DNA from: an archaeon
Lineage (GTDB): Archaea; Asgardarchaeota; Thorarchaeia; Thorarchaeales; Thorarchaeaceae
Assembly (NCBI GenBank): GCA_024276825.1
Contig: JAJRWI010000050.1
Span: forward strand, 1 to 64,000
Direction: 5' to 3'
DNA: 64,000 nt
The notes under the pieces are model-generated. The model was not told where the DNA came from, made no database searches, and saw nothing but the letters and a program-made list of their open reading frames with translations. The translations under genes were made by a program, and so were the position numbers. Below, one piece after another: positions 20,402 through 26,038 of this stretch. Position 1 is the first letter of the stretch. The number at the start of each line of letters is the position of its first letter.

Positions 20402-22411
20402 GTGAAACCATCCAATGACCTTCTTAAGAAAGCACTAAACACAATCCGCTTTCTATCAGCTGATGCAATACAGAAAGCAAGATCTGGACACCCTGGCCTA
20501 CCAATGGGCGCAGCAGCAATGGCTTATGCACTCTGGATGCGTCACCTGCGGTTCAATCCTAAGAATCCTTCTTGGCCCAACCGAGACCGCTTCATTCTCT
20601 CTGGTGGTCATGGGTCTATGCTGCTATACTCACTACTATACCTAACGGGTTATGATCTGACTCTCGATGACATCGAGCAGTTCAGGCAATGGAACAGTCG
20701 CACACCTGGACACCCCGAATGTTGGAGGACCCCTGGTGTGGAGGTCACAACTGGTCCTTTGGGTCAGGGCTTTGGAAATGGGGTTGGCATGGCAATAGCT
20801 GAGGCAAATCTTGCAGCGACCTTCAATCGCGATGGCCATAATGTGATTGACCATTACACATATGTGCTGGCGTCAGACGGAGACCTGATGGAGGGTGTCG
20901 CATCCGAAGCGGCCTCTCTTGCTGGTCATCTCAGACTTGGCAAACTAATAGTTCTATATGATAACAATCAGATAAGCATAGATGGTAGTACAGACCTCAC
21001 ATTCACAGAGGATGTCGCTACCCGGTTCAGGGCCTACGGGTGGCATGTCATTGAAGACATTAATGGTCATGATGTTAATGCTGTTGACGATGCTATAAAC
21101 AAAGCAAAGTCTGAGCCACGACCATCGCTTCTTATGTGTCGCACAAGAATAGGTTATGGACTACCGACCAAAGAAGGTACTGCAAAGTCTCATGGCGAGC
21201 CCCCTGGTGAGGAGGAACTCTTGGGTGCGAAGGAAAAGCTTGGGTGGCCAAAGGAGCCCATGTTCTATGTTCCAGATGATGTTCTGGATCATTTTAGGAT
21301 GGCATTGGACAGGGGCGCAACACTGGAGTCTGAATGGAACGAGCGCTTCAACAGGTATCGCAAGGCGTTTCCTAAACTCTCCTCTGAACTGGAACGTCGA
21401 CTTGCTGGGCGTCTGTCTGATGACTGGGAATTGGACATTCCTGTGTTCGCATCAGACTCCAAAGGAATTGCTACCCGTGTTGCATCAGGTAAGACGATTA
21501 ATGCACTTGCAAATCGCCTGACTGAACTGATTGGCGGCTCTGCTGATCTTACCCCTTCCAATAAGACTTGGATTGAAGGTAGTCCCTCATTTCAGGCAGA
21601 CAGTCCTACAGGACGCAATATTCACTTTGGGATACGTGAACATGCTATGGGGACAATTGTGAATGGTATTGCAGCACATGGCGGATTCATCCCCTACTGT
21701 GCAACATTTCTTGTGTTTTCAGACTATATGCGACCTGCCATAAGAGTTTCAGCATTATCAAGACATCACTGCATATGGTTGTTCACTCATGACAGTATTG
21801 GGCTGGGCGAAGATGGTCCGACACATCAACCAATAGAGCAATTGATGAGTCTACGAACAATTCCCGAGCTCGTAGTTATTCGTCCTGGCGATGCGAATGA
21901 GGTTGCAGAGGCATGGCATGTGGCAATCAAGCGGAATGAAGGACCAACACTGATATCATTAACAAGGCAGAGTGTACCAATTATTGACAGAGAGCAATAT
22001 GCTCCCGCCAGTGGTCTGCAAAACGGGGCATATGTCCTTGCAGAATATGGATCATCTCCTGACCTGATTCTCATGGCTTCGGGCTCAGAGGTGCAGCTGA
22101 TTGTGGAGGCTGGAGATAAACTCGCTAAAGATGGCATTAATGTGCGCGTTATCTCATTTCCAAGTTGGGAACTATTTGAAATGCAAGATCCCAAATATAA
22201 AGAATCAGTCCTGCCCTCAAAAGTGACTGCCCGGCTGGCAGTTGAGGCTGGGGTCACACTTGGCTGGGAGCGCTGGGTCGGTGCAAAGGGTAAGATAATC
22301 GGCATTGATACATTTGGCGCCTCGGCTCCATACAAGATACTCTTCAAGAAGTTCGGCTTTACTGTTGACAACATTATAGAGCAGGCCAAGTCCTTGCTTA
22401 AGGAGTCCTAA
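20402..22411 (+). CDS. tkt: Transketolase (single-chain, bacterial type)
   Basis: [38 protein letters not shown]. Confidence 0.97.
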
Positions 22412-22420
22412 AATATAATC

Positions 22421-22978
22421 TCAAGATGTTTCAGTCCTTGCTCTGATATCGATCTTGATATAACCCGCCCTTTGAAGGGTAAGTCGTACTCTCCCGTAGG
22501 TGATACTCCCATTCACCATGTCCCTCAGTTTATCAATCACTCTGTTTCGTGTGGGCTTGTCATATGGTATGGGAATCTCATCATTTTCCTTTGTATACAA
22601 CAGAAGGGCCTTCTCCCTTACTCTCACTATTGGCGGCGACACTATTATTCTACCAGGTTTAAATGCAGGAATCTTCTCTCGAAACGACCTGACAACTGCT
22701 GCCATCTTACGATGCTTTCCAATCTCAACACGAGCAGTCTTTATCACATCATTAAGATATTGGGGTCTTGGATCAAACTGTTTTACAAACTCATCCTTTA
22801 CCAGCTCAAAGGTCTTACTTGATGTGGGGATATGCTCCTTTAGAATGGCCTTGATTACAAAATTGGTGGCATTATGATATATTTCAAACTCCCTGCTGAT
22901 CCTCAACATCTTATCTCTGGTGAGGGGTACGCTCTGAAGTCTGATTATTTCCTCTGTAATTTCAGGCATCGGGAACAA
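22421..22978 (-). CDS. Hypothetical basic protein resembling the REC/WED half of TnpB/Cas12f, no RuvC
   Basis: Motif order YHNATN, PQYLNDVIKTAR, KIPAFK, EIPIPY, GRVRL..GYIKIDI then stop. Confidence 0.5.
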   Translation of the reverse strand: MFPMPEITEEIIRLQSVPLTRDKMLRISREFEIYHNATNFVIKAILKEHIPTSSKTFELVKDEFVKQFDPRPQYLNDVIKTARVEIGKHRKMAAVVRSFREKIPAFKPGRIIVSPPIVRVREKALLLYTKENDEIPIPYDKPTRNRVIDKLRDMVNGSITYGRVRLTLQRAGYIKIDIRARTETS

Positions 22979-23019
22979 CCTGTTATTGGCAAGACACTTG
23001 CCTTAATCAGTCTAACTTA

Positions 23020-24048
23020 TCATATACGTTGGACAATAAACTGTGTTTCACTTATTCCCCTCTTCACAGACTTGGGTGGGAACTCAAAAGATGCCAAGGG
23101 AAACATTATTTCATCGAAGTACTCTCTTTCATGATCTCTCGCCAGTGATATTAGGGTGTTCTCATCTGACACCTTATGACCCGCAATCTCCAATAGGACC
23201 TTGGCAATTAGACTAATAGCCTCACACATCTCAAGAATTGCCAGTTCGTACTCTCCATTCAGAGTGAGTCGATATGACCCGTAGTACTGCCTCTGGGCTT
23301 CTGCAATGTTTGCGACAACTCTACTCTCAATAGATGTTGATGAGTTCTCATATGTTGTGACTGCCTTTTGCATCCAAGGCTTGATTCTGCTAAGGGCATC
23401 AAGTAACTCGTTCTCATTCATTGTTTTCAATTTGAAGGTCCTGAGAAACAACTGGTAAGTGATGGGGTCAAGCATTCGAATCTCACTTAGAATCTCAGAT
23501 GGTTTGACGATGGTGAATATGTTATTTCTCATCAAGATGACCCGACTCACCTCAAATAATGAGCGTCTCAACTCATAAACTGCATTGGCAAGGTCTTCAC
23601 TGTCCATATATTTGGAGGCTCTCTCAAGGTGCCCCATTGCCCTCTGCTTGATTGTATCTATTGCATCATCCTTCCAGACAAAGATTCTTGCATGTCCTTG
23701 CCATTTTTTTATCAATCCGTCTGGGTCCAGGACTATTCTTGCATCACGAAGCATTCCAATGATGCTTGCTGTCTTAAGGACATCACTCATCTCGCCTGCT
23801 AGAGTCTTCTCAAACTCATCAATAGTGCGATAGGACAGATCTATTCGTACACCTTTTTTCTCTGCAAGAAGCTCTACGGGGGCCTCATTTCCATCCCAGG
23901 CAACACAAATGTCAAGATCAGAGTCTGGTGTTGTGGTTCCCTTCACATAAGAACCAAAAGTGAATACCCCTTTGATTGATCTCTGGGACTTCATCTCGTC
24001 CACAATTTCGTGTAATGCTGTGTCGAATCGCCGATATAGATCCATCAT
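23020..24048 (-). CDS. Nucleotidyltransferase (MNT) domain protein with helical C-terminal region
   Basis: FGSYVKG..DSDLDI Pol-beta superfamily motif. Confidence 0.8.
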   Translation of the reverse strand: MMDLYRRFDTALHEIVDEMKSQRSIKGVFTFGSYVKGTTTPDSDLDICVAWDGNEAPVELLAEKKGVRIDLSYRTIDEFEKTLAGEMSDVLKTASIIGMLRDARIVLDPDGLIKKWQGHARIFVWKDDAIDTIKQRAMGHLERASKYMDSEDLANAVYELRRSLFEVSRVILMRNNIFTIVKPSEILSEIRMLDPITYQLFLRTFKLKTMNENELLDALSRIKPWMQKAVTTYENSSTSIESRVVANIAEAQRQYYGSYRLTLNGEYELAILEMCEAISLIAKVLLEIAGHKVSDENTLISLARDHEREYFDEIMFPLASFEFPPKSVKRGISETQFIVQRI

Positions 24049-24228
24049 CCTGAACCCACCTCATCTCGAGAATCTATTCTCACATTAATTCGTTCTGGCA
24101 CTCAATAAAATTATCTATTATGAAGGTTGGATTGCTAATTTCACAATAAAATGCAGTTATATCATTCGACTAACAAGTTCCGAACGAGATTAATAGGAGA
24201 ATTACAGCATTAATTACGAGTTGATACT

Positions 24229-24933
24229 GTGGCACGTATAGATGGGCGGGCTAATGATGAGATTCGACCCGTTATAATCAAGAGAAACTATCTGAAGCAT
24301 CCTGAGGGATCGGTTCTGATCTGCACTGGTGACACGCGAGTAATCTGTACTGCTACTGTGGAAGAATCCGTCCCAAGCTGGCTCAACGGTTCCGAACAAG
24401 GATGGGTGACAGCAGAATACGGCATGCTTCCAAGGGCAACCAATACGAGAACAAGCCGAAACCGGGTGACTGGACGGTCGCAAGAGATCCAAAGGTTGAT
24501 TGGCCGCTCATTGCGGCAGGCAGTCGATCTCTCTATGCTTACAGACATTCAGATCAAGATTGACTGTGATGTGATTCAAGCAGATGGAGGCACAAGAACT
24601 GCATCAATTACTGGTGCTTATATCGCATTAGTTGATGCAATCGACTACTTGCTTGAACAAGGAATAATTGTAGACTCGCCAATTCTTGGTAATGTTGCTG
24701 CAATCAGTGTGGGTATTGTACACGGCGAAGTGTTGCTTGACCTGTCATATGTTGAAGACTCTGTAGCACAAGTGGACATGAACATTGTGATGCGTGATAA
24801 CACCTTTGTTGAAGTGCAGGGGACTGGTGAAGAGTCCACATTCACAAAGGCTGATCTGGATGAGATGCTCCGCCTTGCAGAAAAAGGCATTAGTGAACTA
24901 ATCGAGGTTCAAAATCAAGCTCTAACTGATTGA
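24229..24933 (+). CDS. rph: Ribonuclease PH (bacterial type)
   Basis: [50 protein letters not shown]. Confidence 0.93.
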
Positions 24934-25036: not shown

Positions 25037-26038
25037 ATGTCTGTTGCTGCATTCTCACCCTCGACCCCCGGAACACCCGCATACGATGCCATTATCAACT
25101 CGGCCCGCAGTTATCTACGAAGACGCGATTTTCTCACTTATTCAACTCCACTTGTCCCTGAGCAGGTCGGCTCTGAAACATGGTCTGTGTCATGGGGCTA
25201 CATTCGCCACTTTGACGATATGATAGACTCCCCCAAGATCACAAAAGAACAGGCAATTGACTTGATGGAACAAGAACGCGAGATTGTTGAAGTAGGTCTT
25301 GCAGGAAACCTGAAACTCCCCCGAAATGCCCCACTTCGCCATCACTGGCTAGCTCAGTTCTTTTACAATGAGAGAAAATTCTATTCCGGACGCGCGTTGC
25401 AGGTCATAAAGGACCTATATGAGAGTGCATGGGGTGATGTTCAAAGAAGAGGACAAGTATTGACGGAGAAAGAGATGAGTGTCCTGTTATATAAGAAAGC
25501 AAGAAGTTTCTTCAAACTCTATTTCATACTTGCAGATTTTGATCTCCAAGGCCATCTCGATGACTTCTCATATCTGTTAGGCATGGGGCTTGGAATGCTT
25601 GATGACATTCTGGACTTGGCAATTGACTATAATGCAGGCTATGTCAACATCACACAGGAAGAGATGAGAAACCTTGGTATCGAGCTTCAACCAGGTGATG
25701 AGGGCTTTCTCGAACATGTCATCAAGAGGGGGTATCTGACATACAAAGCAAAGAAGATAATGTCATTGCTGATCAAAGCACGGGCACTTGCTCGACGTAT
25801 CCGTGTTCCTCTAGTCAAGACCTTTCTCTTGCGTCTGACCGAGATATTCGCATCTCCCATCATTGAAGGGAGGTTTATTCCTGGCCAACAGTATATCTTC
25901 AAGGGCGGCCGACTTGCCGATAAGATATTGCCGAAGAATGAGGCACTGGCCTATCGAATTGGTCACACCCTAATCAAGTACTTCTTGAAATATCCGCAGG
26001 TCCCATCTGTATTGTTCAAGAGGGAATATGAGGAGTGA
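25037..26038 (+). CDS. Class I isoprenoid synthase-like (squalene/phytoene synthase fold) protein
   Basis: Two aspartate-rich motifs RHFDDMID and LDDILDLAID, all-helical. Confidence 0.65.
   Translation: MSVAAFSPSTPGTPAYDAIINSARSYLRRRDFLTYSTPLVPEQVGSETWSVSWGYIRHFDDMIDSPKITKEQAIDLMEQEREIVEVGLAGNLKLPRNAPLRHHWLAQFFYNERKFYSGRALQVIKDLYESAWGDVQRRGQVLTEKEMSVLLYKKARSFFKLYFILADFDLQGHLDDFSYLLGMGLGMLDDILDLAIDYNAGYVNITQEEMRNLGIELQPGDEGFLEHVIKRGYLTYKAKKIMSLLIKARALARRIRVPLVKTFLLRLTEIFASPIIEGRFIPGQQYIFKGGRLADKILPKNEALAYRIGHTLIKYFLKYPQVPSVLFKREYEE

Follow-up and report, generated by a model that had tools for sequence, protein, structure and literature searches.

The question raised by this locus is whether a small, basic protein that resembles only the N-terminal lobe of the TnpB and Cas12f nucleases is a working host protein or the remnant of an insertion sequence (IS), and what such a protein could do. 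The gene lies in the first 64,000 nt of contig JAJRWI010000050.1 (assembly GCA_024276825.1), from an Asgard archaeon of the Thorarchaeaceae; this whole stretch was analysed and is referred to as the window. The product was identified, with high confidence, as the wedge-recognition-wedge (WED-REC-WED) lobe of TnpB, domesticated by its host. Gene and product are called the N-lobe gene and the N-lobe protein below.

22421..22969, minus strand: gene for a RuvC-less TnpB N-lobe (WED-REC-WED), from open reading frame and translation, orthologue starts, AlphaFold2 model, fold matches and hhalign

Reading frame and gene product

The first-pass annotation, made from the letters of the window alone, had called an open reading frame (ORF) at 22421-22978 on the minus strand, encoding a basic protein of 185 aa. 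The translation was confirmed, and all of the peptide motifs that had been quoted (IIRLQSVP, FEIYHNATN, PQYLNDVIKTAR, KIPAFK, IPIPY, GRVRL and GYIKIDI) are present in it. The length of 185 aa holds for a start at the alternative TTG codon (22978); ATG 22969 is the start used in the database gene calls and in all orthologues, and it gives 182 aa. The stop codon occupies 22421-22423. The protein is indeed basic, with an isoelectric point (pI) of 10.1 and 36 Lys and Arg residues to 23 Asp and Glu, and a pI of 9.0-11.0 was calculated for 19 of 20 orthologues.

The spacings to the flanking genes were also as described. The stop codon of a convergent transketolase gene (TIGR00232), at 22411, is separated from the N-lobe gene by 9 nt, while on the other side the stop codon (23020-23022) of a co-oriented nucleotidyltransferase (NTase) gene lies 41 nt from the TTG and 50 nt from the ATG. 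There is no room for a cis-encoded omega-RNA, since only 9 nt are available downstream and the 50-nt upstream spacer is taken by a conserved box and a Shine-Dalgarno-like stretch. Neither tnpA nor IS ends were found at the locus, and no RuvC or zinc-ribbon remnant lies near the gene, the PF01385 and PF07282 matches of this genome all being on other contigs.

Fold and homology

An AlphaFold2 model of the N-lobe protein was built on a 42-sequence alignment and reached a predicted local distance difference test (pLDDT) score of 93.1 and a predicted template modelling (pTM) score of 0.86. The model runs from beta structure through three long helices to a beta-rich region and two final strands. The proposed resemblance to the WED-REC-WED half of TnpB was borne out when the model was searched against the PDB with Foldseek: at E≤0.001 there were 34 matches, all to the TnpB/Cas12 family (best E 8e-8, query template modelling score, TMq, 0.60-0.69). 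These comprised Cas12f, dCas12f, the TnpBs of ISDra2 and ISFba1, Cas12k/m/n/lambda and LaTranC, with Fanzor2 just above the E threshold. With VIA-align, 173 of the 182 model residues were aligned to residues 3-215 of SpCas12f1 (Z 15.4), and a match to residues 1-212 of AsCas12f was also obtained (Z ~14). On ISDra2 TnpB, residues 3-182 of the model corresponded to residues 1-178 (Z 11.7), ending at the linker to RuvC-I; the protein does stop cleanly where RuvC-I would begin. In the ESM Atlas, the closest clusters were archaeal PF27234 (MJ0013) proteins and TnpB 'transposases' (TM 0.76-0.79), and the nearest (TM 0.79) consisted to 92% of PF27234 proteins. In a viral structure library, only TnpB/Fanzor-like proteins matched the model.

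Sequence searches of Pfam, NCBIfam and the PDB with the single protein, the 42 members or the family profile returned nothing meaningful, so that the relationship to TnpB is visible only by fold search and profile-profile comparison. For the latter, an alignment was made of 21 full-length MJ0013-type TnpBs of about 375-400 aa, each with PF27234, PF01385 and PF07282. Comparison of the family profile with these archaeal TnpBs by hhalign gave a probability of 91.9% (E 7e-7) over 118 N-lobe columns, and two of the 17 invariant residues of the N-lobe family, N36 and A79, aligned on the invariant N29 and A72 of the MJ0013-type proteins. The same profile also retrieved a TnpB fragment in the genome of another Asgard archaeon, G115, to which the 21 full-length proteins are related. 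These profile comparisons indicate that the resemblance to TnpB is one of homology, beyond a shared fold. Residue mapping onto ISDra2 TnpB by a profile hidden Markov model (HMM) gave PDB-chain alignments of the RuvC/TNB part only.

While the WED-REC-WED lobe of the superfamily is present by both fold search and hhalign, the remainder of the nuclease is missing. The sequence does not extend past the last WED strand, leaving no RuvC domain with its D-E-D triad; PF01385 was matched in none of the 42 family members, and no Pfam match to the zinc-ribbon TNB domain (PF07282) was found in the family. A word-indexed search revealed no fused or longer forms, which is weak evidence, and an exhaustive search identified a single longer form of 377 aa, the extension of which consists of helical repeats and not of RuvC. 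In this orthologue (P0064, L018:6001-7134, GCA_900174565.1), the N-lobe is followed by ~190 aa of helical units with repeats of the DRPWEVL...IPRIA... type.

Two further observations concern variation of the lobe. A subset of the family, 228-240 aa in length, carries an insertion of ~45 aa between REC helices 2 and 3 (L039, L040, L042, L044 and L045, from genera g3, g4, g6, g8 and g9; P0023, P0040, P0046 and P0050). In the ESM Atlas, three mostly Bacillota clusters of 166-182 aa proteins (51, 225 and 91 members) matched the whole model with TM 0.72-0.78, one of them auto-named 'Transposase (Fragment)'. N-lobe-only TnpB-like ORFs may occur in bacteria too, as fragments or further domestications.

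Distribution, selection and descent

A total of 400 genomes of the phylum were surveyed, 85 from the same GTDB family (Thorarchaeota-type) and 314 from other families. The N-lobe gene was found in 79 of the 85, spanning 16 genera and almost always present once; completeness is 65-88% in the six family genomes that lack it. None of the 314 genomes of other families contained it, the only match there being the TnpB fragment in G115. The genome to which the window belongs (98% complete) has one copy. An HMMER search over 1.8 billion cluster representatives gave only 19 matches, and the named ones were Thorarchaeota. Two NTase and N-lobe gene pairs were seen in G327 (C82:7902-8477 and C67:7416-8114), one of the short form and one with the long insert, which probably reflects a mixed bin (contamination ~6%) rather than a duplication.

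Ratios of nonsynonymous to synonymous substitution (dN/dS) were 0.05-0.15, a sign of strong purifying selection, in within-genus pairs, which were used because dS was saturated between genera and left the ratio uninformative there. Together with ~50 same-length homologues and 80 genome matches, these values place the ORF far beyond chance. Pairwise distances of the N-lobe protein tracked those of ribonuclease PH (RNase PH) between genera (r=0.61, Mantel p ~0.004), which is consistent with vertical descent.

A sceptical reading of the locus, that of a decaying IS fragment or truncated tnpB pseudogene, has precedents, as truncated TnpB ORFs do exist, among them the 232-aa fragment of G115 and the Atlas clusters named as transposase fragments. 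It is refuted by the conservation of the gene and was left with a negligible probability: the same length is kept at the same, syntenic place in the 79 genomes, under selection, and the gene is preceded by a conserved Shine-Dalgarno-like stretch and, at promoter distance, by a conserved box. The traits of IS200/IS605-IS607 elements, namely mobility, multiple copies, tnpA and left and right ends (LE/RE), are absent, and the gene is a single copy at a fixed site across the 16 genera. The N-lobe gene is a host gene that one Asgard family inherits vertically in single copy, outside any IS, and it descends from an archaeal tnpB of the MJ0013 type that has lost the whole RuvC/zinc-ribbon lobe.

The TnpBs now resident in these genomes behave differently. 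In 86 genomes, TnpB zinc-ribbon matches ranged from 0 to 43 per genome, with none in 21, of which six are at least 91% complete. As resident TnpBs are so variable or absent, the N-lobe gene behaves as a host gene and needs no resident TnpB. The resident types were also tried as its source and rejected at the profile level, the 408-aa IS605-type, 549-aa and 721-aa proteins scoring 0.2-0.5%.

Copies and remains of such elements were also seen. Some Thorarchaeal genomes (G352, G348, G333, G392 and others) carry dozens of near-identical IS605-type TnpB elements of 408-409 aa (L124-L143), with a common left end of ~150 nt (…AACAGCTGCACAAATCCTGGACGAACCTGGACATCGATGAAACC…) before the ATG. The fragment in G115, a member of another Asgard family, is of the MJ0013 type (232 aa, L035:4232-4930, G115:C3:178231-178929); all that is left of it is the N-lobe together with the RuvC-I strand (AVALDINETN), the picture of an ordinary decaying copy. 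At locus L020 (GCA_030592715.1, JAUVIL010000046), the spacer between the NTase and N-lobe genes is 692 nt long (L020:4037-4728). Nucleotides 313-604 of this spacer share 74% identity with the end of a 549-aa TnpB-like ORF of the genome to which the window belongs, covering its last ~185 nt and ~100 nt downstream; this counterpart (C24:46766-47050, L007:2305-2589) is the expected omega-RNA/right-end region. A 150-aa ORF called in the spacer is probably that omega-RNA region, and a 721-aa Cas12f1-like_TNB protein is encoded between RNase PH and NTase at the same locus. The insert looks like IS debris and not like a feature of the family.

Neighbouring genes

23020..24048, minus strand: co-oriented nucleotidyltransferase (NTase), 342 aa, from Pfam, motif, fold model and synteny
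24229..24933, plus strand: divergent bacterial-type RNase PH, 234 aa, from TIGR01966

A co-oriented NTase gene directly upstream had been noted in the window, and this arrangement held at every locus examined, an NTase of ~340 aa adjoining the N-lobe gene in 16 genera, even where protein identity falls to 31%. RNase PH (TIGR01966, 3.4e-104, 347 bits against a cut-off of 141.5; start codon GTG) is adjacent and divergent to the NTase gene in most of the genera sampled. The genes that usually follow the N-lobe gene are of the housekeeping type, among them a WD40 gene in convergent orientation and one for an M28 peptidase. In the window, a 333-aa ORF with no NCBIfam match lies downstream of RNase PH (25037-26038, plus strand).

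The NTase matched the Pfam family NTP_transf_2 (PF01909) at 2.9e-11, and its GS...DxD...D motif (G32-S33, D44, D46 and D70) is kept in 23 orthologues. The model (pLDDT 91) shows a minimal Pol-beta NTase domain and, C-terminal to it, a HEPN-like helical domain, the architecture of KNTase and ANT(4'). Fold matches were to 3c18 (Z 15.5), ANT(4') (Z 14.9) and the HEPN protein AF_0298 (Z 13.5), with LinB, MntA and HalB also found. The Rx4-6H motif of HEPN proteins was not found in the C-terminal domain, which has no conserved histidine and shows the pattern R330-x3-E334-x2-F337-x3-R341 instead. Compared with ANT(4') and the MNT-HEPN proteins, the domain order and the active-site motif are the same; the differences are the length of 342 aa, an extra three-helix insert at about residues 205-292, the missing Rx4-6H and the setting, as this NTase is a housekeeping-context core gene of one archaeal order.

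The NTase also has an orthologue (32% identity) in a sister-family genome, where the next gene is a small membrane ORF and not the N-lobe gene, and where RNase PH is 3 kb away. The NTase is accordingly the older of the two, and the N-lobe gene was either acquired next to it at the origin of the family or lost from the sister family. Pairwise distances of the NTase and the N-lobe protein were not correlated (r=0.09), with distances near saturation. A complex prediction for the two proteins scored 0.00 against a mark of 0.32 and was not used as evidence.

The order of an MNT-type NTase followed by a partner mirrors that of type VII toxin-antitoxin modules. The N-lobe protein could on this basis be a target or regulatory partner of the NTase, nucleotidylated on a conserved tyrosine for example, as HepT is by MntA, or a protein-protein adaptor. 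The N-domain of the NTase matches the MntA model NF047752 (4.5e-8, below the cut-off) and structures of MNT and HEPN-toxin proteins, and of the tyrosines in the N-lobe protein, Y31 and Y71 show no variation and Y158 almost none. However, the neighbourhood is one of housekeeping and not of defence, the NTase carries its HEPN-like domain in the same chain and this domain lacks Rx4-6H, and the two proteins show no co-variation of distances. Very high basicity and invariant positions kept from TnpB are also what nucleic-acid binding calls for, and a role as partner or target was judged very unlikely.

Conserved upstream boxes

23001..23016, minus strand: 16-nt box GTTAGACTGATTAAGG (family consensus GGTTAGATTGATTAGG), from the upstream-region alignment
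22975..22982, minus strand: Shine-Dalgarno-like stretch CAGGTTGT, from the alignment of 47 non-redundant upstream regions
24102..24116, minus strand: box AGATAATTTTATTGA (consensus AGATAGCTTTATTGA), 53 nt before the NTase ATG, from the alignment of 16 RNase PH-NTase spacers
24180..24196, plus strand: box CCGAACGAGATTAATAG (consensus CCCGACAGTGATTAATAG), with its end 32 nt upstream of the GTG start codon of RNase PH, from the same 16 spacers

The spacer upstream of the N-lobe gene contains a 16-nt box that begins 3 nt past the NTase stop codon and ends 32 nt before the ATG (one less counting both flanking G's). At least nine of its 12 core bases were present in 69 of 74 loci, at a distance of 24-38 nt from the start (29-35 nt in 66, mode 30-32). 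The box is followed by ~20 variable bases and then by a conserved Shine-Dalgarno-like AGTGGT; the stretch in the window corresponds to the family consensus (C)AGTGGT, located 6-13 nt before the ATG, and its AGTG columns were at least 90% conserved in the 47 regions. RNAalifold gave no consensus RNA structure for the upstream spacer, and an Rfam scan of 15 kb returned nothing relevant. A perfect 6-bp hairpin (GGCAAG-TGT-CTTGCC, 22988-23002 of the window, minus strand) directly follows the 16-nt box; in other genera, different, non-homologous hairpins occupy the same ~20-nt stretch, with no structure in common.

The spacer between RNase PH and NTase contains two boxes as conserved as that of the N-lobe gene. 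The one before RNase PH (...GAGATTAATAG) has the same 32-nt spacing and the same TGATTA core as the 16-nt box, and it is this likeness that led the 16-nt box to be read as a promoter. The 16-nt box would most simply be the N-lobe gene's own, unusually well-conserved promoter, resembling a B recognition element (BRE) and TATA box, and the boxes at 24102..24116 and 24180..24196 are the probable promoters of NTase and RNase PH, respectively. A generic TATA box of this genome was rejected as an identity for the 16-nt box, which is unlike the TTTAAA/TATAAA boxes before tRNA genes. A regulon was likewise rejected, there being no enrichment in the same genome and no second conserved site in 86 genomes.

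Published structures of TnpB and Cas12f show that the duplex of the transposon-associated or protospacer-adjacent motif (TAM/PAM) is read by the WED and REC domains. The N-lobe protein consists of exactly these domains and might be a guide-free, sequence-specific binder of double-stranded DNA, or transcription factor, that uses the TAM-reading surface and at least regulates its own gene through the GGTTAGATTGATTAGG box. The box is conserved far above its surroundings and at a fixed distance, has no RNA structure, and differs from the tRNA-type TATA boxes. Of the AT-rich hexamers with the strongest enrichment at 28-47 nt upstream of well-defined starts in this genome, it contains none, apart from a near match to TTGATA. 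The box also contains TTGAT, and ATTGA is shared with the NTase promoter box. Against this, the box is conserved nowhere else: in the genome of the window, position weight matrix (PWM) matches and k-mers were at or below expectation, and of the 64 exact 12-mers of the box in the 86 genomes, 25 were at the N-lobe gene and the other 39, mostly in ORFs, had no common flanks. A core gene with itself as sole target would be odd, and since the RNase PH and NTase promoters have comparably conserved boxes, an ordinary promoter explains the conservation. A guide-free DNA binder of this kind was considered unlikely, and an operator role of the box, including autoregulation through a TAM-reading surface, is possible and unsupported.

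Proposed role of the N-lobe protein

All characterised relatives of the fold depend on guide RNAs, and complexes of Cas12f and dCas12f gave the best structural matches. By analogy with TldR and dCas12f, the N-lobe protein could bind DNA or RNA under the direction of a guide RNA encoded elsewhere in the genome, the RuvC lobe being dispensable; the ~45-aa REC insertion of several orthologues recalls the growth of REC in Cas12 evolution. No guide RNA was found beside the gene, where there is no non-coding room on either side, no Rfam match and no upstream consensus structure. The 9 nt downstream in the window are matched elsewhere by overlapping convergent genes, and the upstream spacers of 46-76 nt are filled by the box and the Shine-Dalgarno-like stretch. 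In TnpB, the scaffold of the omega-RNA is held for the most part by the RuvC/TNB lobe, which this protein has lost, and the only locus with an omega-RNA-like spacer fragment is L020, with its apparent IS debris. A guide RNA supplied in trans was for these reasons thought quite unlikely.

The best guess for the N-lobe protein is instead a nucleic-acid binder without nuclease activity. In TnpB and Cas12f, the WED/REC cleft accommodates the scaffold of the guide RNA, the TAM duplex and the heteroduplex of guide and target. In the N-lobe protein, the very basic cleft may still bind nucleic acid, a proposal supported by the basicity of the orthologues. With no nuclease, the protein would be a non-cutting binder or adaptor, probably working without a neighbouring guide RNA and probably sharing a pathway with the adjacent NTase and RNase PH. 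Its putative 'recognition' role would then be directed at an RNA, or an RNA/DNA structure, that undergoes trimming or nucleotidylation at its 3' end. As the best overall explanation, a nuclease-free binder was given about an even chance, and the specific mechanism, a guide-free binder coupled to the NTase, is put forward tentatively, at even chance or a little below.

Several points weigh against this explanation. The fold of the NTase is that of small-molecule or protein nucleotidyltransferases (ANT(4'), LinB, MntA and HalB) and not of RNA-tailing or CCA-adding enzymes. The box at promoter distance means that adjacency need not imply co-transcription, and the distances of the NTase and the N-lobe protein do not co-vary; each of these three points weakens the link to RNA 3' ends. 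The NTase of the sister family, with no N-lobe gene beside it, indicates that the enzyme can work alone. In published structures, the RuvC lobe of TnpB holds much of the omega-RNA, so that an N-lobe alone may bind RNA poorly.

A bolder version of the binder would be the targeting subunit of a two-protein machine that brings the NTase, and perhaps RNase PH, to specific nucleic-acid sites, for which it may use a trans-encoded RNA or a retained TAM-type duplex-reading surface. Only a slim chance was assigned to this version. If true, it would be the first case of a recognition half of a Cas12 ancestor that was uncoupled from cutting and re-coupled to nucleotidyl transfer, and it would have arisen in the archaeal lineage closest to eukaryotes.

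The wider interest of the N-lobe gene lies in a WED/REC-only protein that is under selection across a lineage, which shows that the recognition half of TnpB can fold and serve alone. This bears on the modular evolution of the TnpB/Cas12 nucleases and offers minimal nucleic-acid-binding scaffolds of ~180 aa for engineering. For Asgard biology, it adds a family-defining core gene beside genes for RNA processing and nucleotidyl transfer. The case is also a testable one, as the protein is small, basic and confidently predicted, and the 16-nt box and the neighbouring enzyme are concrete candidates for ligand and partner.

Comparison with known TnpB derivatives

Published exaptations of inactivated TnpBs include the TldR repressors and forms associated with sigma factors, SpoIIE and flagellin (PMC10691335; bioRxiv 10.1101/2023.11.30.569447). 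These keep the RuvC fold, or lose only RuvC-III in the flagellin clade, and have an adjacent guide RNA (PMC10691335). The RuvC fold is likewise kept in the Cas12 effectors, Cas12k included, and in the dCas12f-sigma systems. Like TldR and the other exapted TnpBs, the N-lobe protein is host-domesticated, immobile, nuclease-less and steadily associated with another gene. It differs in having deleted the whole C-terminal lobe, in having no adjacent RNA, in being archaeal (Asgard) and in being paired with a KNTase-like NTase. The expectation that a REC/WED-only protein would be distinct from TldR and dCas12f was thereby upheld, both the RuvC fold and the adjacent RNA being gone. A full-text literature search yielded no description of a Thorarchaeal or Asgard TnpB domestication or of a RuvC-less N-lobe form, and no TnpB derivative paired with a KNTase-like NTase was found in the literature searched by term. 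N-lobe-only exaptation is a variant of TnpB reuse undescribed in the literature searched.

Compared with TnpB itself, the whole protein superposes on the WED-REC-WED lobe of the ISDra2 protein (8exa, 8h1j and 8bf8; Z 11-11.7, ~160 residues), and it shares profile homology, invariant positions and basicity with the MJ0013-type TnpBs, which have a PF27234 N-terminus followed by PF01385 and PF07282. Unlike TnpB, it has no RuvC-I/II/III, zinc ribbon, adjacent omega-RNA, tnpA or transposon ends, and its gene is single-copy, syntenic and vertically inherited, whereas tnpB is multi-copy and patchy. No profile similarity was detectable to the TnpBs now resident in Thorarchaeal genomes.

The best structural matches were to Cas12f and dCas12f (9i8y, 8j3r, 8dzj and 9n9c; Z 13.6-15.4, 164-173 residues). 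Several structures of Cas12f dimers show no more than the N-lobe of the second protomer (chains of 175-200 residues; target-based score, TMt, 0.55-0.65). Cas12f and dCas12f differ from the N-lobe protein in keeping the RuvC fold beside a CRISPR array or guide RNA, both of which are absent here. By their defining traits, the N-lobe gene encodes neither a TnpB/Cas12 nuclease nor a TldR and is not an IS element; by fold and by homology, its product is the N-lobe of the TnpB/Cas12 superfamily.

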